DNA of 64,000 nucleotides from an uncultured archaeon (lineage in GTDB: Archaea > Altiarchaeota > Altiarchaeia > JAFGQM01), in NCBI GenBank assembly GCA_964592405.1, contig CAZQBY010000001.1, forward strand, positions 78,737 through 142,736. The letters run 5' to 3'. Numbering within the stretch: position 1 is the stretch's first letter; every line of letters begins with the position of its first letter. This document shows, piece after piece, positions 36,694 to 49,718 of the stretch. Below the pieces are notes generated by a model. That model was not told where the DNA came from, ran no database searches, and worked only from the letters and a program-made list of their open reading frames with translations. Both the position numbers and the translations under genes were made by a program.

Positions 36694-37725
36694 ATGGAAG
36701 AAATCCGGCTTACATCATTCAGTTCTTATGGAGGATGTGGCGCCAAATTACCTGCAGAACACCTGGATGCCCTCCTGAGTGCAATTTGCGGAGGCAAAAC
36801 TGAGGGTTCTACCGGTTCTACCGGTCTGGAGACCCTAGACGACGCCGCAATTTACAAAATTGGAGGTATGACCCTCCTCCTGACTGCAGACTTCTTCACT
36901 CCGATAGTGGATGATCCATACACATTTGGCCAGATAGTCGCAGCGAATGCCATGAATGACATCTATGCCATGGGCGGAACTCCCCTGACAATTCTCAATC
37001 TCATGGAATTTCCGGCAGACCAGCTCAATGCCGAGATACTGACCAAAATTGTGAAAGGGGGACAAGACAAGGCTCTTGAAGCTGGCGCTAGGATAGTCGG
37101 CGGCCATACTCTGAGGGGCTCTGAGCTAAAGTATGGTATGGCAGTTCTGGGAAGCGTGGAATCCAAGGACCTCTGTAGGAACTGCACTGCCAGGGCCGGT
37201 GATAGGCTGATACTCACTAAACCACTTGGTGTTGGTATTATAGCTACTGCCATCAAACAGGGTCTTGCAAGCCAAAAGGCCATCAAAACAGCTTGCAGAT
37301 ACATGACACAGCTGAATGACAAGGCTTGCAGTATTATGAGGGAAACTGGTGTCAACGCCTGTACTGACATAACAGGGTTTGGTTTCATAGGTCATTCTCT
37401 AGAGATGGCCAGGGGCAGCAGTGTGGGCATGAAAATAGAGGTGGATGCAATACCTTATCTAAAAGAAGCGGCAGAACTCGCAGAAGAGATGAGAATAACC
37501 TGCCTCAACAGGGATTATTTCTCAAGGCATGTTGATTTATTAAAGAAACCATCAAAAATTATGTTGGATCTCCTCTACGATCCTCAAACATCTGGGGGAT
37601 TGCTAATTTCGGTCTCATCCAAAAAAGCAGATGTGCTCCTGAACAAGATGAGGGAACAAGGGGTGGAAGCAGAGCTCATAGGCAACGTCGTTGAATCTCC
37701 AAAAGGCAGGCTTGTATTGTTCTAG
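36694..37725 (+). CDS. selD: Selenide,water dikinase (Cys-type selenophosphate synthetase)
   Basis: RLT...GGCGAK, DDAA, DFFTPIVDDPY, GGH, LTKPLG, TDITGFG, DPQTSGGLL. Confidence 0.96.
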   Translation: MEEIRLTSFSSYGGCGAKLPAEHLDALLSAICGGKTEGSTGSTGLETLDDAAIYKIGGMTLLLTADFFTPIVDDPYTFGQIVAANAMNDIYAMGGTPLTILNLMEFPADQLNAEILTKIVKGGQDKALEAGARIVGGHTLRGSELKYGMAVLGSVESKDLCRNCTARAGDRLILTKPLGVGIIATAIKQGLASQKAIKTACRYMTQLNDKACSIMRETGVNACTDITGFGFIGHSLEMARGSSVGMKIEVDAIPYLKEAAELAEEMRITCLNRDYFSRHVDLLKKPSKIMLDLLYDPQTSGGLLISVSSKKADVLLNKMREQGVEAELIGNVVESPKGRLVLF

Positions 37726-37744
37726 GAGTTCAAATACCATAAAA

Positions 37745-38590
37745 ATGAGAAAACATTCCTCCTGGTTTTGTGTGGAGCTCAGAGACGTATACAGGGCGAT
37801 CGCAAAGGGCGAGGATATCCTGTGTGTTTTTCCTTCTGTATTGGCAGAGGAACTCTCAGGGGTAAAGAACATTGCTATAGCTGAGATATCTGGGAGAGAC
37901 AGTATCGCTGCTGCACTGAAATTTATAATGGACGGAGGTGGGGATGATATTCTACCAGTAGCTGATGACATACCGCCCCAGTATGGTGACTTCAATGAGG
38001 CCTTTAGCCCGGTTTTCTGGCTCAGAAAGAAGGCTGAGGAATATGGGGCAAGAGTGCATAGTCTTATTTTCATTAAGGAGCACGAGCTGTATAAGACCCT
38101 TGTAGCCAAATATATGAGGGAAGTAATTAGCCACTATGGGTTTTACACGCCCTGCATACCCTGCCATATGTATTTCCATACTATAAGAGCCCCTCTGGTG
38201 AAGGCACTGGGCGGGAGCAAGATAATCGGGGGTGAGAGGGATTCCCATGACGGCAGGATAAAACCAAGCCAGATACCCATGGCCATAGACTACTACAAGA
38301 AGGCGGTCAAGGAGCTTGGCAGCAGACTTGTCTTGCCACTGAGGCACATAGTCAATACAAAGGAGATAATATCATTTACCTATGAGGAGGATACTCAGCT
38401 TTCATGTATGTTCAAGGAGCTCCATGGAGATTTGTCCCAGAGCATAATGCAAAACACTGGGAAACTCAGAAGATTTCTTGAGGAGTTCGTTATGCCAATT
38501 AATCTAAAACTGATTAGGGCCCTGACTACTGATGAGAACGCTGATATACCAAAGCTGGCTAATGAATTTATGGATAATCTGGACAAATAG
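37745..38590 (+). CDS. Uncharacterised PP-loop (adenine-nucleotide alpha hydrolase-like) protein with CxxC
   Basis: IAIAEISGRDSIAAA (SGxDS-like), YTPCIPCHMYFH, IIGGER, LPL; starts 19 bp after selD. Confidence 0.7.
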   Translation: MRKHSSWFCVELRDVYRAIAKGEDILCVFPSVLAEELSGVKNIAIAEISGRDSIAAALKFIMDGGGDDILPVADDIPPQYGDFNEAFSPVFWLRKKAEEYGARVHSLIFIKEHELYKTLVAKYMREVISHYGFYTPCIPCHMYFHTIRAPLVKALGGSKIIGGERDSHDGRIKPSQIPMAIDYYKKAVKELGSRLVLPLRHIVNTKEIISFTYEEDTQLSCMFKELHGDLSQSIMQNTGKLRRFLEEFVMPINLKLIRALTTDENADIPKLANEFMDNLDK

Positions 38591-38692: not shown

Positions 38693-39985
38693 ATGAAAAA
38701 AATCCTGTTTGCGATCTTGGATGGCGCTGCTGATATTCCCTGCCCAGAGCTTGGAGGCAGGACTCCGCTTGAAGCTGCCAAAACCCCAAATATGGATGCA
38801 TTGGCCCAAAGCGGAGTTACGGGTATGATGTACCCGATAGCCAAGGGCTTTGCCCCCGAGTCCGATTCTGCGGCAATCAGTCTGCTTGGATATGATGTCC
38901 TGAATTCATACACCGGCAGGGGACCTCTGGAGGCCCTTGGAGCCGGTCTTAAGATACAGGAGGGCGATCTGGCTTTCAGGGTCAATTTTGCCACTATAAA
39001 TGACAATAATGTAATAGTTGACAGGCGTGTCTGCAGGGACCTCTCCAATGAGGAAGCCTCCCAGCTCGCAGATGCAATAAACACGGAGATCACTCTGACC
39101 AAATACCCATCAGAACTGCGTCTGAAAAATTTTCGTGGCTTCAGGGGCGTGCTACTGATCCACAGGCTCGATGGCGGGCAGTTCTCCGGCAATATCAGCA
39201 ATGTGGATCCCGGCTACATAAAAAGGGGGGCATTCAGCATAGGGAATCCCAAGATGGACCTGCATCTGAAGCCGTGTATACCTCTTGACAATACACAGGA
39301 GGCGGCAGAAGCCGCGGAGATCACCAATGAATTTATAGCCCGGTCGCGAGATGTGTTGGGGGAGCATCCGGTCAATTCAGCGCGCATTAGAAGGGGACAA
39401 CAAAAGGCCAACATCATCCTCACGCGGGATGCTGGCGACAGGCTCCCCAAATTTCAAAACATAAATGAGAGATATAATGCCAGGTTCGGCATGTTTGCGG
39501 AAATGCCATGTGAGGTGGGCATCGGCACCCTTATGGGCATGAAAATCATCGAGCACAAAAGCCGTAGTAGATCTCCAAAGGAAAACTACAGAAGACTTGC
39601 CCATCTGATTGCGGAAGAATTAAGGAAGCTGGATATCATTTATCTGCATCTCAAGGGACCGGATAATCCGGGGCATGACGGAGATGCTGAGGGAAAAAAA
39701 GAATCTATAGAGATGATAGACTGCTACTTTTTTGGAACCCTGCTACCGCTTCTGGAAAATACTTTGTTAGTTGTTACATCCGATCATGCTACACCATGCC
39801 ATCTCAGAACACACTCCTCGGATCCTGTTCCCCTCCTCATATCTGGGGGGGAGATATCTGGGGGAGAGATTACACGGGATAAAGTAGTATCATTTGGTGA
39901 GAGGGCCTGCCGGACCGGTTCTCTGGGCCTAATTAATGGGAGGAAACTGATGCCGATTTCTCTTCATCTAGCTGGGCAGTCCTAA
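38693..39985 (+). CDS. apgM: Cofactor-independent phosphoglycerate mutase family protein (archaeal ApgM type)
   Basis: LDGAAD, TPLEAAKTPNMD, ESDSA, GRGPLEA, KGPDNPGHDG, TSDHATP, HSSDPVP. Confidence 0.85.
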   Translation: MKKILFAILDGAADIPCPELGGRTPLEAAKTPNMDALAQSGVTGMMYPIAKGFAPESDSAAISLLGYDVLNSYTGRGPLEALGAGLKIQEGDLAFRVNFATINDNNVIVDRRVCRDLSNEEASQLADAINTEITLTKYPSELRLKNFRGFRGVLLIHRLDGGQFSGNISNVDPGYIKRGAFSIGNPKMDLHLKPCIPLDNTQEAAEAAEITNEFIARSRDVLGEHPVNSARIRRGQQKANIILTRDAGDRLPKFQNINERYNARFGMFAEMPCEVGIGTLMGMKIIEHKSRSRSPKENYRRLAHLIAEELRKLDIIYLHLKGPDNPGHDGDAEGKKESIEMIDCYFFGTLLPLLENTLLVVTSDHATPCHLRTHSSDPVPLLISGGEISGGEITRDKVVSFGERACRTGSLGLINGRKLMPISLHLAGQS

Positions 39986-40887
39986 GTCAGCTTCTCAAGA
40001 TAATGCTCAATTGGAGTTGCCCTTGATCTCAGCTCCTCAAATGCCTTTTCATATAGATCGCTTACTCTTTTTCCTATGACCCTTATACCGGAGATCTCCC
40101 CCATGAAAACAAGTATCAGGAGAACTTCCCTATCCGACACATAGGTATTAAATACTGATGAGGCTGTATCCAGTATGAAAAGTTTTACATTCTTGTGATT
40201 TTTTAGGTCCTCTAAGATCTCTCCTGCCCATTTTTTGACAGAGGCGTTCCCGTAGATCTCCCTGATTATCTTCACATAGGCATCTAGGGCTTCTTTGGTC
40301 ATTATCTGCTCGATGGGTTTCTCCATGTAGAAATCCATATACGCCCTATATTTTAAAAGCGATATCTCTTTGGAAGGTGTTGTTGCCGCGCGCCTCCTCT
40401 TGTTTATCACTTGGCGTATCTTCCAGAATTCCTCTTCATCCCTTGGCTGTATGAACCATGAAATTGAAAGTTCTCTGTGGATAGTCTTGAGCCATTCAGC
40501 CTTTGAGATAAGTCCTATCAGTTCATAATCATACCCCCGGTTGTCTGTAATAACCTCAACCCGCTCAATCTTCGTTTTCTCTTCAAGTAATGAGAGCAGC
40601 CGGCTCTGCTTTTCCATCTCCTTTTCAAATTTATACTGCAGAAAGTCCAGTATCCTGTCGTTGGGATTCCTCATGGAATAGACCGCGGGAACGCCATCCT
40701 CACGCTCTATCAGTTTCATTTCTATCAGCTCATTCAGAAGGTTGTAAATCCTGCCTTTGGGTATTGTCGTTCTAGCACATATTTCATCTGCAGTGCACGC
40801 CTCTGCTGACAAGAGCTTTAGTATGACCAAATGGTTCTTTTTGAGATAGAAACTGGTCTTGAGCTCCTTCAAAACTTCAGAAAACAT
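39982..40887 (-). CDS. TrmB-family transcriptional regulator
   Basis: TADEICARTTIPKGRIYNLLNELIEMKLI..GVPAVY HTH; C-terminal effector-type domain. Confidence 0.85.
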   Translation of the reverse strand: MFSEVLKELKTSFYLKKNHLVILKLLSAEACTADEICARTTIPKGRIYNLLNELIEMKLIEREDGVPAVYSMRNPNDRILDFLQYKFEKEMEKQSRLLSLLEEKTKIERVEVITDNRGYDYELIGLISKAEWLKTIHRELSISWFIQPRDEEEFWKIRQVINKRRRAATTPSKEISLLKYRAYMDFYMEKPIEQIMTKEALDAYVKIIREIYGNASVKKWAGEILEDLKNHKNVKLFILDTASSVFNTYVSDREVLLILVFMGEISGIRVIGKRVSDLYEKAFEELRSRATPIEHYLEKLT

Positions 40888-41032: not shown

Positions 41033-41140
41033 ATGGTACTGACTTCAGCTATGTGTGAATATTTGCGTAAAAAGGAATTGGAAGATAGCGCTAATATAAG
41101 GGGATTTCATATAAATAACTCAAATAAAATATTTATTTAA
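41033..41140 (+). CDS. 35-aa micropeptide A
   Basis: MVLTSAMCEYLRKKELEDSANIRGFHINNSNKIFI*; preceded by a TATA box and GAGGTAGGGGGGTG; paralogous to 41228..41338. Confidence 0.65.
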   Translation: MVLTSAMCEYLRKKELEDSANIRGFHINNSNKIFI

Positions 41141-41227: not shown

Positions 41228-41338
41228 ATGGTATACACCCCCTCCATGGTGGCTTGGCTTAGAAGAAAGGGCCTGTGGCAGACAATAAGAGCGAAGAGAG
41301 CTAAAGTCAGAGCAAAAGCACGGCCCCGGGTGAGATAG
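41228..41338 (+). CDS. 36-aa basic micropeptide B
   Basis: MVYTPSMVAWLRRKGLWQTIRAKRAKVRAKARPRVR*; purine-rich upstream sequence; shares its N-terminal motif with peptide A. Confidence 0.7.
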   Translation: MVYTPSMVAWLRRKGLWQTIRAKRAKVRAKARPRVR

Positions 41339-41350
41339 TTTTATCCCCCA

Positions 41351-42337
41351 TCATCCCTCCCGCTTTTTATATCTTGAATAAATGGTCTCAACTCTCTTTC
41401 TCAGCTTACCAGTTATCTTATCAGCCTCCTCCTTATCTATTCTTACAGCCCTACTGCATTCAGCCTCAAACAGTCCCTTGAACCTATTTGCCAGTTCCGG
41501 CGAATTTATATAAACAGCTCCGACACCCATGCTTTTCTCATCTCGGACCATCAGGAAGAACTCATTCATATCTTCATTATGCGGTATTATCATGTCGAGA
41601 CCATAGGGAGAGGGGCTGTAGAACAGCTTCAGCTTTTCATTATTGGTTATGAAGTCTGCCAAGCCATTAAGGACCATATTAATCTCATCATAAGCATATC
41701 TTGGATTCTTATAGGCTCTCGCCAGCCTCCTAAAGAGGTATTCGATGTCAAAGTGTGTCAGATAGTTGACTTCTAGTTCCTTCTTCATAATACATCTCTC
41801 CCAAAGGGTCTGCACATACAGCCGGGCGCCCGGAATCTGCATCAGGGATGGTGATTGGGCGTAGAGAATCCGGGGAAATATGCCAGTAACATAACATATC
41901 TTTGCGGTTTTCAGGAGTCCAGCAGTTTTGTAATACATATCATCATAATCAAAAAACATGACAGCAGGCTCCTTTCTCTTGACTGAGAGCCGCCCGAAGA
42001 ACTCCATAACCCCGCCCCTAATCTCATCAAGCTCATATATCTCAGTGTCGAGAAAGTTTCTGGCTTCATCCAGAGCCTTCTTTATTGCGTTGAAATCTAT
42101 CTCATAAGATGCTTCATCAGTCTTCTTGACAAATCCCCGCTCGCGCAGATTCTTGAGTTGGGCAAAGAAATTTGATTTTTGTATTCTCCTGGACTGATGC
42201 AGTTCTGCATCCCTATCTATAATTGCCTTCGGACTAGCCTGTTTTCCCTCCTTCTGTAAACTGACTATGGCTTCAATTATATGAAACTGTTGCTTGGTGA
42301 TCCCCAACCACCTTGGGAGCTTTTCAAGTTCGTTCAT
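41351..42337 (-). CDS. Divergent TrmB-like wHTH regulator
   Basis: LGIT...KSNFFAQLKNLRERGFV wHTH, coiled linker, and C-terminal INSPELANRFKGLFE resembling TrmB effector domains. Confidence 0.7.
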   Translation of the reverse strand: MNELEKLPRWLGITKQQFHIIEAIVSLQKEGKQASPKAIIDRDAELHQSRRIQKSNFFAQLKNLRERGFVKKTDEASYEIDFNAIKKALDEARNFLDTEIYELDEIRGGVMEFFGRLSVKRKEPAVMFFDYDDMYYKTAGLLKTAKICYVTGIFPRILYAQSPSLMQIPGARLYVQTLWERCIMKKELEVNYLTHFDIEYLFRRLARAYKNPRYAYDEINMVLNGLADFITNNEKLKLFYSPSPYGLDMIIPHNEDMNEFFLMVRDEKSMGVGAVYINSPELANRFKGLFEAECSRAVRIDKEEADKITGKLRKRVETIYSRYKKREG

Positions 42338-42416
42338 CTCAAAAGAAATCCAAAGAAATCATCCAAAATAAAAGGTGTTTATAGTTTATACCGTGATCAT
42401 ATAAAAGGGTGATAAA

Positions 42417-42505
42417 AGGGTATACCCTATAGTATAGTAGTAATCTACTACACACTTATGGATATATAAAGCATAAAATAGCTCTCCACGTGCATCTTTT
42501 ATATA
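42417..42505. promoter_or_regulatory. Divergent promoter with palindromes
   Basis: AGGGTATACCCT (42417-42428), GTAGTA-ATC-TACTAC (42437-42451), TTTTATATA (42497-42505). Confidence 0.6.
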
Positions 42506-42525
42506 GCTGGGGATACTAATCTATT

Positions 42526-42726
42526 GAGGCGTGGAGTAGGGTCGAAACACGCCTCTTATTTACAGCCGCCGGATACTCCTGTGGGTGTTGGTGGCTTAAC
42601 AATGGGATCATGGGATCTGAATGGGCGTCATGACCCCATGTGTGGTTGCCAGTGCTTGCGATAACCCGGAGCCAACTGGCAACCACACCGGAAATATCCT
42701 GATGTTACATTTGCACTCCCGGCTGT
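42526..42726 (+). ncRNA. Putative structured ncRNA with four consecutive hairpins, family unknown
   Basis: Stems at 42526-42555, 42564-42596, 42602-42639 and 42640-42688; begins ~21 nt after a TATA box; G-U pairs favour the + strand. Confidence 0.6.
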
Positions 42727-42757
42727 CTGTGTCTTCCAGTTCTAGGGTATGCTTTAT

Positions 42758-42793
42758 CTATGTGCCGGACATAGACTATGTGCCGAACATAGA
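42758..42793. repeat. 18-bp tandem duplication of the platform gene 3' end
   Basis: CTATGTGCCGGACATAGA / CTATGTGCCGAACATAGA (one mismatch); each copy is self-complementary. Confidence 0.85.
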
Positions 42794-44920
42794 ACCAAAG
42801 AAAAAGGCCATTCCGGTCTTCATCAGAATGAACATGCCCAAAGTAGCTGGTACCAACAAGGGAGCGAGTTTCAGTCCAGCGCTTTGTTTACCCTTCCTTA
42901 TGAGACCTATGAGCAGTGAGCCGAAGAATCCTACACTGAACAGGGAGATCATAGCAAAGATTTCCAGATACTCCGGCTTTATGCAGGAGGGAGGTAAGGG
43001 AGGAGCACCTCTTTCATACTGTTCCAGATAAGTTATGCCAAGCTCAGGGTTGATGTTTTGTGCATCGGTGCTGTTCTTTGGATTCAATCCATGCTCCCTT
43101 TCCCATGTATCTGCTATACCATCGCGGTCAAAATCCTTGGGGCATCCGCCCCCGCCAAGCGAGAGCATATCAAAACCCTGCATACCGCCCATCATAGGTC
43201 CAGCTCCTGCGGATGAGATGTCGATATCCATCTCCTCAGGCTGGAATCTGTTCATAATATCAACAAACTGAATAGAAACTGAGAAGAGCAGTGGCGCTCC
43301 AAGAACCATGCCAAAGAGAATGAATAGTATATAGGACATGGTGTTTGCGGCCATCTCTTTTTGTAAGAGCCTCATCTGTCTTATATCATTGCCAATACCC
43401 TGCAGAATCTGTGGCAGTTCGCCACCAGCTTTCATACCCTGAATAAGAAGGCGTATGGTTCTCTGGAGGACATTGGATCTCACCCGGTTCCCCATATCTG
43501 TCAGGGCATCTGCGAAGGATTTGCCTCCCAAAGTTTCCTTCTGCGCTATTTTTATCTCCTCTGCAAGGGCTCCAAACTCCTTTCTGGCGGAGACCCAGAG
43601 GGCATTATAGGGTGTCATACCAGCTGATATGTTGGCACTGACTATCTGAAGAACGTCGGGTAAGGCATTCTCAACTTCATCTGTACGCTTATCTGCCATC
43701 ATATTGATAACCGAATATATGATCACCCAGACTATGCCAAAGGAAAAAATTGCTGCAATAACCACAAGTAACAGATCCCAGTTCAAAAGAAAAAAGCCGA
43801 TTGTAGATACTAGAGCCGCCAGAACCACTCCATTGACTATTGTGATACCGGTTATCTCAATCTGTGTCTTCTCAATACCGCTGTAGATGATGAGCATGTT
43901 TATCTTTTTCTTCCAGCCAAATGGTGAGAACCTCCCAACCCTCCTGTATATGCCCTGCAGGAAGCCGGAGACTCCCTTTGCCACGAGCTTGCCTAGGTTT
44001 ATTGGGATAGAGAGAATGGTCGTAAAGAACACAAATACACTGTGGGACATCCTACCAAACATGCCTCTAATCCCTCTGCTGACTGCCCTGAACGGGCTGC
44101 TGATGGTCCTTCTTCTCTTCTCCCGCCTCTCCAGTTTTTTCTGGGCTTCAGCCTCCTCAATAATTCTTTGTTCCTCTAAAATCTCCTGAATTCTCTTGGC
44201 TCTCTCGGAGATATAAGGACTTATGGTTTTGGGACCAGCAAGCCCAACCTTCTCCTCTTTGGATACCATGCCTGCTTTGGATCCCCTCTTATCAACTATC
44301 CTGAATGTAGGCTCCTTTTTGGCGGCTTTTGCCTTATTGATTTTATAAATCTCCGTAAGAGGGAGATCCTTTCCGCCAACAGTTCCGCCGGCAGGAGCAA
44401 TAGCCTGGTCTTTATCCTCTTCTGCATGTTTCTCTTCTCCATGTTTTCCCTCCCAGCCTGTTCTGCTTGGAGTTTTCCCTTCCGGTTTTTTGCTCTCCTC
44501 TGCTTTCTTAGCTACTACTCTGGCCTCTTTTTTGACTTTTTTCTCCTTTTTCTCGGATTTCCACCTATCCAGAACCCTGCTCAGTGCCTTGTCAATATCC
44601 TTGAGTCTTGAATAGGCCAGCAGTGTGCCCCTTTTTAGAGCTTCTTCCTCACTCACACCAAGCCTCTTCATGATGTCCTTCCTGAGTTTCTTCTCCGGAC
44701 TGCCAAATAATCCCTTTTTTGTCTGCAATAGGGCTGAAAGAAGCTCCTCTGTTTTGAGAGCCGCAATCCCGGGTCTGAGTGGAACCAAAACCTCCTTCTT
44801 GCCAGTCCTCTTCACTTTTGCTCCATCTCCAGACGGTGCGGCTTTGCTTCTGCGTTCTTCCTCTATTATCTCATCCAGGGATTTTATATCCATCTTCCCA
44901 CTGCCACCTACTGGGCTCAC
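42776..44920 (-). CDS. Type IV pilus platform protein (TadC/PilC/T2SS-F) with long N-terminal extension
   Basis: VENALPDVLQIVSANISAGMTP...FGALAEEI T2SSF motif; multiple TMs; DxDxDG-type insert. Confidence 0.9.
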   Translation of the reverse strand: MSPVGGSGKMDIKSLDEIIEEERRSKAAPSGDGAKVKRTGKKEVLVPLRPGIAALKTEELLSALLQTKKGLFGSPEKKLRKDIMKRLGVSEEEALKRGTLLAYSRLKDIDKALSRVLDRWKSEKKEKKVKKEARVVAKKAEESKKPEGKTPSRTGWEGKHGEEKHAEEDKDQAIAPAGGTVGGKDLPLTEIYKINKAKAAKKEPTFRIVDKRGSKAGMVSKEEKVGLAGPKTISPYISERAKRIQEILEEQRIIEEAEAQKKLERREKRRRTISSPFRAVSRGIRGMFGRMSHSVFVFFTTILSIPINLGKLVAKGVSGFLQGIYRRVGRFSPFGWKKKINMLIIYSGIEKTQIEITGITIVNGVVLAALVSTIGFFLLNWDLLLVVIAAIFSFGIVWVIIYSVINMMADKRTDEVENALPDVLQIVSANISAGMTPYNALWVSARKEFGALAEEIKIAQKETLGGKSFADALTDMGNRVRSNVLQRTIRLLIQGMKAGGELPQILQGIGNDIRQMRLLQKEMAANTMSYILFILFGMVLGAPLLFSVSIQFVDIMNRFQPEEMDIDISSAGAGPMMGGMQGFDMLSLGGGGCPKDFDRDGIADTWEREHGLNPKNSTDAQNINPELGITYLEQYERGAPPLPPSCIKPEYLEIFAMISLFSVGFFGSLLIGLIRKGKQSAGLKLAPLLVPATLGMFILMKTGMAFFFGSMFGT

Positions 44921-44962: not shown

Positions 44963-46474
44963 CTATCTGAAATTATAGTATATAGGCCCTGTATCTTCTG
45001 TTTCCCTAAGCTCGTCCTCTACCGCATCAAACTTCGGCCCCTTCGTGATAATCGTGCCACCTATGATGGAGTATTGGGATTTCACAAGTCCGGCATCCTC
45101 CAACATCTTTACCCAGCCTTCCAAAAGCTTTTTGTCGACTCCAAGCTCTTTGACGGCATTGCCTATGCTTATCTTCTCTCTATGGTCAAGAATCTCCAGT
45201 AACCGGTCTATTTCTGTGAGCACCTCCCGCCCTGTGCCAATTATCTCCTCCTCGGGTATCTCCCCTTCCTCAGGGCTTTTTTGCACCGCTTTTGCCGTTT
45301 CTTCCCTTCCAACTTCCTCTTTAACCCCCGTCCCCTCCTTGGTCTTCTCTTTCGCCTCCTCCGGGATTTGCCCCTCCACCCCAAGTTCCTCTTTAACGGC
45401 TTCTCTGGCCTTTTTAAGTAATCTATCTCCAGCCTCTTCTTTTTCCACTTCTTCCCTGAGGGCCTCCCGGATGCTCTTTAGGGGCTTTCTTGTCCAACCC
45501 TTTTCAACCTCTGCCTGTTCCTTCTCACTCACTATAAGTGTGGCTGAAACCAGTTTGCCACTTCCTTCGAGCTTCATTATCCTGACACCCTGAACATTAC
45601 GCCCCATCTCAGGTATTTCACCTGCCGCCATCCTTAAGACACGACCTGTAGATGTTGTAAACATAACCTCATCATCTCCACGAACAGCCCTTGCAGCTAC
45701 TACTAAACCATTACGCTCATTAGTCTTTATGTCTTTGACTCCAAGTCCACCACGTCTCTGAAGGGGATACTTGTCAAATGATGTGCGTTTACCGTAACCA
45801 TTTTCAGTTGCAGTGAGGAGTGTAGCACCCTTGGCCACCACAGTAGCACCAATCACACTACTTCCTTTCTTGAGTCTGATTGCCCTAACCCCCATGGTCC
45901 CTCTCCCTGTTGGTGATACCTCCTCCTCGCTGAATTTTATTGCATAACCATCACTGGTCGAGACCAGTATCTCATCTTTACCTGTAGTCAATAGAACCCT
46001 TACGAGATCATCATACTCTCCCAGTTTTATTGCTATAATGCCTCCCCGTCTTGGATGACTATACTCACTCAGATTGGTCTTCTTTATCATACCCTCCTTA
46101 GTCACCATGGTGAGATAATAATCCTTCCTAAATTCGCTTATCCTCATAGCTGAGGTTATCTCCTCCAGCTTCTTCAATTCTAGGAGTTTTGTGATAGGTT
46201 TACTGCGCCCCTTGGCAGGTATCCTGCCAACCTCCAACCAATGCACCCTCCCCCTGTCTGTGAAGAACAACATCAGGTCCTTGGTTGAAGCCACAAATAT
46301 TCTCGCTAGGAAGTCACCCTTTCTCGTCCTCAGGCCCTTCACACCCTTACCACCCCTTCGCTGGGCACGATATTTGTCGAGTGACAATCTCTTCATATAA
46401 CCCTGATTAGTGACAGAAACTATAACGGCCGGTCCCCTCTTTCCTCCCTCCTCATTCCTTTTCAAGCGTATCAT
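44963..46474 (-). CDS. Stand-alone GyrA C-terminal beta-pinwheel fused to a charged linker and wHTH domain
   Basis: Six GyrA-CTD blades including the GyrA-box QRRGGKG; no breakage-reunion domain; AGGAGG RBS. Confidence 0.88.
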   Translation of the reverse strand: MIRLKRNEEGGKRGPAVIVSVTNQGYMKRLSLDKYRAQRRGGKGVKGLRTRKGDFLARIFVASTKDLMLFFTDRGRVHWLEVGRIPAKGRSKPITKLLELKKLEEITSAMRISEFRKDYYLTMVTKEGMIKKTNLSEYSHPRRGGIIAIKLGEYDDLVRVLLTTGKDEILVSTSDGYAIKFSEEEVSPTGRGTMGVRAIRLKKGSSVIGATVVAKGATLLTATENGYGKRTSFDKYPLQRRGGLGVKDIKTNERNGLVVAARAVRGDDEVMFTTSTGRVLRMAAGEIPEMGRNVQGVRIMKLEGSGKLVSATLIVSEKEQAEVEKGWTRKPLKSIREALREEVEKEEAGDRLLKKAREAVKEELGVEGQIPEEAKEKTKEGTGVKEEVGREETAKAVQKSPEEGEIPEEEIIGTGREVLTEIDRLLEILDHREKISIGNAVKELGVDKKLLEGWVKMLEDAGLVKSQYSIIGGTIITKGPKFDAVEDELRETEDTGPIYYNFR

Positions 46475-48995: not shown

Positions 48996-49718
48996 TTACC
49001 CTCTACTGCTGTTCTTTTTTCTTGTTACAGCGGACTTCGTTCTGCCTTTGGTCTGCCCGTTGCTCTTATTTGCTGATGCAGTTGGTGCAACTCCCTGTTC
49101 CCCCTTCTTCAACTCCTCCAGTATCTGGCGGAGAGTCTCGATGTATTCCGTGAGCTTCTTCCCCTCCGCGATAAGCAGATTCATATACTCCATGACCTTC
49201 TGTTCTTCGTCCTGAAGCTTCCTCATGTTCTCCTGCACTATTGCCTCCTCATCCTCTATCCGCTTTCTTATGAGGAGATACTTCATGGATGTATCAATGG
49301 GTTTTTCCTGTTTTGCCGGTTCCGGCTTCCCAACAGCCGGAGTAGCCGTGGTGGTCATGGCAACTGCTTTTGCTTCTCCTGCAGGCTTCTGTGGGACTTG
49401 TGCCTTCACTGCAGGTGCAGTTACACCTGCGGCTGGAGCAGATTTTGTCTCTTCGGTCTTCAATCCCGGGGCTTGGATGCCCTCCTTGCCACCTCCTGTC
49501 AGAAGGGTGTCAAACTTGGGTCCTCTCTTGACAAAGGCTCCGCCTATGACGGAGTAGTGTAGCTCCACAAGTCCAGCCTTCTCCAGCATACGCGTCCAGC
49601 TCTCTATGTGCTCTTTATCTGTTCCAAGTTCCTTGGCGGCATCCGAGACCTTAATAGTGTCTTTTTTCTCTAACAACTCTACGAGCTGATCCATGCTTGT
49701 CGAGACCCCCTCATCCAT
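48996..49718 (-). CDS. wHTH plus Ala/Pro linker plus coiled-coil protein
   Basis: N-terminal DAAKELG...WTRMLEKAGLV wHTH, homologous to the C-terminus of 44963..46474. Confidence 0.8.
   Translation of the reverse strand: MDEGVSTSMDQLVELLEKKDTIKVSDAAKELGTDKEHIESWTRMLEKAGLVELHYSVIGGAFVKRGPKFDTLLTGGGKEGIQAPGLKTEETKSAPAAGVTAPAVKAQVPQKPAGEAKAVAMTTTATPAVGKPEPAKQEKPIDTSMKYLLIRKRIEDEEAIVQENMRKLQDEEQKVMEYMNLLIAEGKKLTEYIETLRQILEELKKGEQGVAPTASANKSNGQTKGRTKSAVTRKKNSSRG

Follow-up and report, generated by a model that had tools for sequence, protein, structure and literature searches.

In enteric bacteria the small RNA SgrS, like GcvB, is encoded divergently from its regulator, and the published account describes the sgrT coding part as its most variable feature, with 5′-truncated homologues in Yersinia still acting as functional riboregulators (PMC2760817). 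A locus of comparable logic lies in a 64,000-nucleotide stretch of DNA from an uncultured altiarchaeote (contig CAZQBY010000001.1, positions 78,737 to 142,736; this whole stretch is the window referred to below, and coordinates are positions in it), in which a predicted structured RNA of the + strand stands back to back with the gene of a 328-amino acid (aa) regulator of TrmB-like fold. We conclude that this element is very probably a genuine non-coding RNA of the + strand, which has a promoter of its own and is linked to the TrmB-like gene. As with SgrR and SgrS, the regulator and RNA genes stand back to back, here in all four genomes that carry the RNA, and a small open reading frame (ORF) accompanies the RNA in some lineages only (one genome of the four), the RNA part being conserved. 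In contrast to SgrS this RNA is archaeal with a TATA promoter, shares neither sequence nor structure with it, has no Rfam match and has yielded no conserved base-pairing seed or target; its ORF lies 3′ and not 5′ of the structured part, and the regulator has a TrmB fold and is not of the SgrR type. By analogy, SgrR/SgrS/SgrT offers the closest known logic, the resemblance being one of logic only and not of family membership.

Regulatory RNAs known from uncultured archaea with small genomes are, to our knowledge, very few, and a literature search found nothing on non-coding RNAs of Altiarchaeota or on small RNAs paired with TrmB proteins in archaea. The reading that we favour, at about even confidence, is that of a leader-derived RNA which now stands alone, is probably bound by protein and belongs to a module of regulator and micro-ORF. 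The four copies come from the window's genome (G000; 1.13 Mb in 22 contigs, 87% complete), from two further species of its genus (G001 and G002; genus g1) and from G007, a member of a second genus (g4, which also holds G005) in the same family (f1). In the window the RNA occupies an intergenic region (42338-42775) bounded by the start of the regulator gene on one side and the stop of a 714-aa T2SSF gene on the other, and the features of the locus are as follows:

41351..42337, − strand: regulator gene (ORF), 328 aa, TrmB fold, divergent from the RNA
42399..42407, − strand: candidate TATA box of the regulator gene, mirror of the RNA's TATA box (inverted repeat I5; putative promoter role)
42404..42453, no strand: palindromic stretch between both promoters, candidate operator (repeats D1, I3 and I7; putative binding)
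42488..42505, + strand: predicted RNA promoter, an ACG[AT]GC element and then a CTTTATAT TATA box, conserved in all four genomes
42526..42555, + strand: hairpin 1 (H1), an 8-bp stem with a 14-nt loop GAGUAGGGUCGAAA, the predicted 5′ end of the RNA
42564..42596, + strand: hairpin 2, 14 pairs including four G-U and one bulged G, variable
42602..42639, + strand: hairpin 3, variable, holding a tandem ATGGGATC duplication (D4)
42640..42688, + strand: last hairpin (HL), 14 perfect pairs (I1), core at 42644-42684, directly abutting hairpin 3
42689..42775, + strand: 3′ tail, which reaches the stop of the convergent gene, poorly conserved and lacking a micro-ORF
42776..44920, − strand: convergent T2SSF-domain pilus-assembly gene, 714 aa (Pfam PF00482, E = 1.5e-15)

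An earlier description of this DNA from its letters alone, here called the sequence-only reading, had proposed four stems behind a TATA box, with the third and fourth abutting, and all of these were found again. The H1 stem is formed by GAGGCGTG/CACGCCTC (8 bp), and the TATA box (TTTTATATA, 42497-42505) lies upstream of it across a gap of 20 nt, its motif recurring in all four genomes. Counted from the first T of TTTATAT (the CTTTATAT box), the distance to the first base of H1 is 28, 28, 30 and 31 nt in the four genomes, which is the usual archaeal spacing from TATA box to transcription start, and the RNA should therefore start at the foot of H1. The inverted repeat I5 (ATATAAAAG / CTTTTATAT, 88 nt apart) presents the same 9-mer in mirror image facing the regulator gene, and within the candidate operator the block ATAAAAGGGT.TA.CCTA..GTATA is conserved in the alignment of the four genomes. 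As predicted from these motifs, the locus is a divergent promoter pair with candidate operator sites, and the regulator probably controls both its own promoter and that of the RNA via the conserved palindromes between them.

The element folds on the + strand to a degree that lies above chance. Between 42526 and 42690, bounds that came from the later comparison with relatives and not from the sequence-only reading, the z-score for folding was −6.2 on the + strand, none of 200 dinucleotide shuffles being as stable, and −4.5 on the − strand; the interval of the sequence-only reading with flanks (42520-42740, 221 nt) gave −2.8 and −3.8, respectively. Across the four species z on the + strand was −6.2, −5.7, −6.7 and −4.6 as against −4.5, −4.5, −4.6 and −2.6 on the − strand. 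G-U pairs that are possible on the + strand alone occur in stem 2 (four of them) and in the upper stem of HL (a U-G), and a covariance model built from the four copies (R1) scored the window at 69.3 bits on the + strand and 23.9 bits on the − strand. These figures bear on the alternative that the element works from the − strand, as a 3′ untranslated region (UTR), terminator or stabiliser of the pilus operon transcript or as a read-through leader of the regulator, which we consider quite unlikely. Both flanking genes lie on the − strand, that strand also folds significantly (z = −2.6 to −4.6) and one position of G001 pairs only there; yet in each of the four species the + strand folds more stably, and it alone accommodates several G-U pairs, the TATA box stands at the right distance and in + orientation in all four genomes, and in G007 a + strand ORF follows directly behind the RNA. 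A further suggestion of the sequence-only reading, that ACAGCCG (42562-42568) may instead pair with CGGCTGT (42720-42726), fared unevenly, as this pairing is present in the minimum free energy fold of 42520-42740 and missing from the centroid, and inspection of the relatives by eye turned up nothing that clearly corresponds to the long-range closure of stems 2-4 that it would bring about.

An alignment of the four intergenic regions, with identity to the window measured region by region, revealed conservation in islands. The H1 loop is identical at 14 of 14 positions in G001 and G002, and HL is 71-76% identical, as compared with 35-38% for the middle of the RNA, 15-42% for the 3′ tail and 33-48% for the promoter/operator, and with 15-52% for intergenic DNA outside the H1 loop and HL. 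Within the genus the flanking proteins reach only 63% (regulator) and 74-79% (T2SSF) identity. The compensatory changes anticipated by the sequence-only reading were seen in H1 and HL over the four sequences; stems 2 and 3 are not conserved, hairpin 3 being unalignable with the relatives. On this alignment stems 2 and 3 are variable filler and the conserved parts are H1 and HL only, both of which were also recovered by RNAalifold from the three sequences of the window's genus. The total length of H1 is 30, 34, 32 and 24 nt, its stems differing in sequence and length with pairing kept, and five of its pairs have changed on both sides, as counted in an alignment where MAFFT set the G007 stem against the loop.

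HL follows one layout throughout, with a 9-bp lower stem, an internal loop of Y versus CAA, a 4-bp upper stem and a loop beginning GCGA. All 52 cells given by its 13 pairs in four sequences are standard pairs, three of the pairs having changed on both sides, and a control in which the partner strand was slid left only 23-54% of cells paired. The arms of HL stay complementary at spacings from 19 to 77 nt, the apical loop of G007 having taken up a 65-nt insertion with two extra hairpins, and such co-variation at variable spacing argues for an RNA stem and not for transcription factor half-sites. Conversely, the seven pairs around the internal loop are invariant, which indicates sequence-specific recognition. 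The view that the element has no RNA function, being made of chance palindromes or sites that act at the DNA level, is in our estimation very unlikely. The family is small and its transcription is read from promoter motif and sequence, as that view would have it, but it has to contend with z-scores of −4.6 to −6.7 in four species, with stems kept through two-sided changes and with island-like conservation in which the spacing between co-varying arms varies.

Where the window has hairpin 2, G001 and G002 repeat the HL design in a hairpin whose stem has 9 bp and whose loop is GCG(A/G), and R1 gave 19 bits to the G001 copy. Decoy RNAs of the CsrB/RsmZ type are built from repeated protein-binding hairpins, and the boxB hairpin of phage lambda binds a peptide. 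The RNA of G001 and G002 likewise repeats one hairpin design, with conservation in loops and not in a single-stranded seed; it differs from these systems in having no GGA motifs, and the window's copy has the conserved design once. The sarcin-ricin or loop E (bulged-G) motif consists of AGUA opposite GAA, and the H1 loop in the window's genus can be read as G-AGUA-G-GGU-C-GAA-A, in which AGUA and GAA enclose a G-C pair and a triloop, as in a hairpin of the sarcin-ricin type. Hairpin 1 of G007, with the loop GGGCAAAAC, lacks the motif, and the sarcin-ricin-like H1 loop may be just a common protein-docking module.

The shape of HL could also suggest a processing site. Archaeal splicing endonuclease recognises a bulge-helix-bulge of two 3-nt bulges on opposite strands with a 4-bp helix between them, the relaxed form having one bulge, a helix and a loop, and HL might be such a relaxed bulge-helix-loop substrate, losing its top by excision or marking a point of cleavage or circularisation of the RNA. 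The 3-nt bulge (CAA) beside a 4-bp helix is invariant in all four copies, the part above the bulge tolerates 7 to 75 nt as an intron would, and the genome is rich in tRNA introns. Set against this, HL lacks both an outer helix and a second bulge of 3 nt, an additional unpaired Y stands opposite the one bulge that it has, and strict conservation of sequence around the loop is atypical for such sites, so that we regard processing as a highly improbable explanation.

A search of 40 relatives with the locus by BLAST matched hairpin 1 only, in both congeners (G001 and G002). With the regulator and T2SSF genes as handles, the matching intergenic region was then read in all eight genomes of the family, and the RNA was present in G000, G001, G002 and G007. 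It lies between the regulator start and the end of the T2SSF gene in each of them, and the divergent regulator, the TATA box and the two conserved hairpins recur in all four. The exact pattern of conserved HL letters occurs in four of 61 genomes of the class, with no match for a reversed control, and R1 found one match in each of the same four (64-76 bits); the phylum-level search covered the same 61 genomes, and as these are 57-97% complete, not found does not mean absent. In the window's own genome the HL design occurs once. A pattern scan of metagenomes returned at least 118 stretches, a number that fits a rough chance estimate, and among those checked no flanking stem resembles that of the true copies, the best reaching six extra pairs on a gut contig. 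Twenty stretches from viral sequences all scored 27 bits or less with R1, as against 64-76 bits for true copies. Among genome contigs a search for related loci with the regulator gave nothing, and with the C-terminus of the T2SSF protein it gave only five archaeal loci, which by their identities are presumably genomes already compared. On these comparisons the RNA is lineage-restricted, occurring in two genera of one family. The DNA of the locus recurs in nine sequencing runs, all of DNA (eight labelled hydrothermal vent and one marine metagenome); contigs from three of four runs compared were near-identical, and their sole difference (C>T at 42425) lies outside the RNA and adds no covariation. 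As separate observations, G005, the second species of genus g4, has an orthologue of the regulator that is 42% identical (L010:1-1500, reverse strand); its divergent partner is an ORF of some 100 aa, acidic and helical, which follows a similar TATA box, with neither RNA nor micro-ORF there. In G002 a short hairpin repeat of another kind, CCACCGGTC ... GACCGGTGG (L008:2820-2960, + strand), is present several times downstream of the RNA and is absent in the other species.

The ORF behind the RNA in G007 belongs to a family of micro-ORFs of 16-40 aa that begin with MV[LFYIM]TxxMxx[YW]L, have a tail that varies and is mostly basic, and usually lie beside genes for TrmB-fold regulators. The following members were noted:

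41033..41140, + strand: micro-ORF 1, 35 aa, MVLTSAMCEYL..., paralogue of the ORF behind the RNA in G007
41228..41338, + strand: micro-ORF 2, 36 aa, MVYTPSMVAWL..., with a very basic tail
L009:2748-2849; L008:1293-1358 and 1360-1482; L007:2636-2704 (− strand); L161:306-425; L164:2648-2749 (− strand): further micro-ORFs

Micro-ORFs 1 and 2 sit between the window's two regulator genes, about 1.2 kb from the RNA. The N-terminal pattern also occurs in G001, G002, G003, G006 and G007 and not once in 785 kb of unrelated control loci, and a profile search found the family in seven of the 61 genomes, all of them in family f1; it has no Pfam match. Eight of the peptides share M1, V2, T4, M7 and L11, and their codons vary at third positions, all four Thr codons being used for example, which points to conservation at the level of the protein. 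Elsewhere in G007, on contig C45 (L199:236-286, + strand), a 16-aa member ends in ATGA, overlaps the start of a 75-aa ORF that by eye looks feoA-like and is followed in turn by a similar small ORF and a feoB-like GTPase ORF, and the micro-ORF would here be a leading cistron; elsewhere members stand in front of an FKBP-like gene (L201) or of different genes (L196, L200).

In G007 the micro-ORF MVLTIAMEAYL... begins 17 nt past HL with no promoter-like AT-rich stretch between, and being so close to HL without a promoter of its own it would have the structured RNA as its 5′ leader. Genus g2 has a micro-ORF with a short leader at the same spot, and no RNA. In the window's genus (G000, G001 and G002) no ORF follows the RNA, the micro-ORFs lying beyond the regulator gene instead, and alignment did not show the remains of a decayed micro-ORF past HL in the window, where an ATG stands at 42702. 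An ORF of 89 aa in G007, which runs from inside the TATA box through the RNA and into the micro-ORF, was rejected as coding because the shared HL is read in different frames in the window and G007, with a stop in the window, and because the differences between the H1 lengths (30, 34 and 32 nt) are not multiples of 3.

It is unlikely, as we see it, that the RNA is a cis-acting leader, riboswitch-like or controlled by protein, that serves the micro-ORF solely and is a leftover in the window's genus. Its likeness to structured 5′ leaders and riboswitches is plain in G007, where some 140 nt of structured RNA form the 5′ UTR of a micro-ORF without a Shine-Dalgarno-like motif of its own, and long leaders precede further micro-ORFs of the family as well. 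Unlike such leaders the RNA stands alone in three species, all of the window's genus, and these have preserved the H1 loop at 14 of 14 positions together with an intact core of HL; with neighbouring DNA at 15-52% identity this retention speaks against a leftover, which would have decayed. A cis leader should be the 5′ UTR in all members, and an ORF follows in G007 only. Likewise, neither a junction resembling a ligand pocket nor an aptamer-like multi-helix junction with conserved unpaired bases is visible.

The sequence-only reading had included a guide or base-pairing role among its proposals, and this found no backing, as exact 9- to 12-mers, duplex energies and 15-mers with up to three mismatches yielded no conserved antisense target. 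Duplexes of the H1 loop with micro-ORF starts were no better than those of shuffled loops (0.30-0.83 of shuffles were at least as good), and complements of the H1 loop are not commoner genome-wide than those of a reversed-pattern control, the best matches falling inside unrelated genes. In G002 the long leader of a micro-ORF paralogue on contig C2 (L201:1615-1625, − strand) holds an 11-nt perfect complement to the H1 loop, which was not seen in other species and is at chance level for a whole genome, though notable for its place.

The same reading had also named an antisense role, in which transcription from the RNA promoter would enter the 3′ end of the convergent T2SSF pilus operon and modulate it through transcriptional interference or a duplex; to this we assign a low probability. 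All four genomes preserve the RNA and the T2SSF gene in convergent order, and no strong T-run terminator lies past HL in the window, the first run of T in the 3′ tail being TTT at 42710-42712; both points favour such control. The conserved parts nevertheless fall outside the pilus gene, the distance from HL to the stop codon ranges from about 35 to about 190 nt with a micro-ORF between in G007, and antisense action requires no conserved hairpin loops. The T2SSF gene itself closes a pilus-type operon with T2SSE, T2SSF and KaiC-like genes, and its orthologues are 71-79% identical in all seven other genomes of the family.

Comparison with known RNA classes was made across 4227 covariance models of Rfam 15, and the whole window gave no match at gathering score, the check that the sequence-only reading had proposed thus turning up no family. 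With E allowed up to 10, only FtrA appeared in 42300-42900 (E = 6.8, 17.8 bits versus a gathering score of 134), which lies outside the RNA and is meaningless, and for the loci of the three relatives the best hit over the RNA was Virus_CITE_8 at 30 bits versus a gathering score of 80. The same reading had judged the element unlike tRNA, signal recognition particle (SRP) RNA and RNase P RNA, which is borne out. ARAGORN found no tRNA in the window, and RF00005 has 23 matches in the genome, none of them at C1:121264-121428. RNase P RNA and SRP RNA are encoded by single essential genes, and with the genome's copies located elsewhere (RF00373, C4:14-297, 133 bits; RF01857, C5:41335-41601, 103 bits) both are ruled out for this locus. 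A minihelix derived from tRNA was also rejected, as none of the 33 tRNAs found by ARAGORN begins with the HL stem sequence and the hairpins of the tRNA-Ser array are unrelated, as are all tRNA acceptor stems. Over all contigs of the window's genome ARAGORN detects 18 tRNAs without an intron search and 33 with it, so that nearly half of the detected tRNA genes appear to bear introns, some of them long.

Archaeal H/ACA and C/D guide RNAs are, like this one, small RNAs made of hairpins, and H/ACA RNAs may have up to three. ACA does follow the 9-bp stem in the window, but the corresponding letters are CCC in G001 and ATT in both G002 and G007, and there is no large pseudouridylation pocket, the internal loop measuring 1 nt (5′ side) by 3 nt (3′ side) in each of the four sequences. 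A C/D box RNA was rejected on reading the four sequences, which hold no conserved pair of C (RUGAUGA) and D (CUGA) boxes; CUGAUG occurs a single time, in the window's 3′ tail. Readings as a K-turn or an IRE-like element were, by eye, unsupported.

The 328-aa regulator has no Pfam or NCBIfam match, so that sequence profiles including PF01978 leave it unmatched. Its AlphaFold model (AF2, alignment of 16 sequences) reached a predicted local distance difference test score (pLDDT) of 86.7, and a Foldseek search of the PDB with this model retrieved TrmBL2 (5bpi_D, E = 7.4e-10) and TrmB (3qph_A, E = 3.7e-5), with an overall template modelling (TM) score to these structures of only 0.27-0.40, which is consistent with a differing domain arrangement. 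Its structural neighbours in the Atlas are TrmB clusters, and its own Atlas cluster is mostly labelled Altarchaeota. On the modelled structure the description as TrmB-like is correct at the level of fold. Relatives occur in 35 of the 61 class genomes, with 63% identity within the genus, and BLASTP found no similarity between this protein and the 301-aa product of the Pfam-TrmB gene at 39982-40887. The sequence-only reading had assigned the RNA to a selD/TrmB module, of which the TrmB half stands, the TrmB-like gene being linked in all four genomes, and the selD half does not. In G007 the regulator with the RNA adjoins purC, with no selD, apgM or first TrmB gene between, which places the selD-apgM-TrmB block outside the conserved module. 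In the window, at 36694-38590 (+ strand), the selD-like gene (AIRS domains) overlaps a 299-aa ORF that has no Pfam match and contains SGRDS and CxxC.

The leader-derived, stand-alone RNA that we favour would be a + strand transcript of about 165 nt, from 42526 to about 42690 and possibly longer at its 3′ end, with an archaeal TATA promoter of its own that faces away from the promoter of the regulator gene. It may have arisen as the long 5′ leader of a conserved micro-ORF, or may serve as one as well, a role that G007 would have retained, and in the window's genus the trailing ORF would have gone and the RNA would be held by purifying selection as a stand-alone molecule; that it is kept intact in three species without the ORF points to a function of its own. 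The conserved elements would be the H1 loop, the asymmetric internal loop of HL and its GCGA loop, and these keep their sequence even at paired positions that were free to co-vary. With no conserved antisense target, with conservation centred on loops and with a repeated HL module, the RNA is best read as acting by being bound. The binder would more readily be a protein than a small ligand, and base pairing would not be the mode; binding would control the micro-ORF in cis in G007, and in the window's genus would work in trans, the RNA serving as a platform or decoy.

Several points weigh against this interpretation. The − strand folds well too (z about −4.5), and one H1 position of G001 that is a C-A mismatch on the + strand would be a G-U pair on the − strand. 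The H1 loop is only partly kept in G007, at 8 of 14 positions, and no clear terminator follows HL in the window. Transcription of the RNA is deduced from its promoter motif and sequence. The covariation, drawn from only four sequences in two genera, is suggestive and not statistically secure, and related sequences can beat all shuffles in the pairing test without any structure. The binding mechanism is argued from exclusion and from the pattern of conservation, and one genus may have lost the ORF, or the other may have gained it.

Further observations concern the neighbouring pilus genes. A tandem duplication of 18 nt at 42758-42793 (CTATGTGCCG[G/A]ACATAGA), each copy of which is itself a small hairpin, has as its second copy the final codons and stop of the T2SSF-like gene, the first copy lying just past the stop. 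Inside the pilus-type operon a 503-aa protein (44963-46474, − strand) matches over its N-terminal two thirds the DNA gyrase A C-terminal beta-propeller domain (Pfam E = 5e-68, five repeats), an odd companion for a pilus-assembly operon, and its C-terminal end resembles the N-terminus of a 240-aa protein at 48996-49718.

Were the RNA merely a leader remnant or an antisense terminator, the finding would be ordinary. A bolder version, to which we attach only a small probability, is that the RNA and the basic micro-protein (MVLTxxMxxYL with an Arg/Lys-rich tail) together form a small archaeal ribonucleoprotein switch under the TrmB-fold regulator. The internal loop of HL and its GCGA loop would then dock the peptide or the regulator, and the RNA would titrate or deliver its partner, in cis in G007 and in trans in the window's genus; if true, archaea would have here their first counterpart of a dual-function RNA, caught in the course of dividing into a gene for the RNA and genes for the peptide. 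As it stands the locus appears as a compact unit of a regulator gene, a promoter-defined structured RNA and tiny ORFs that are attached in one genus and detached in another, and as such it would offer a natural case for how a leader turns into an independent RNA and for the role of the micro-ORFs that accompany TrmB-like regulators.

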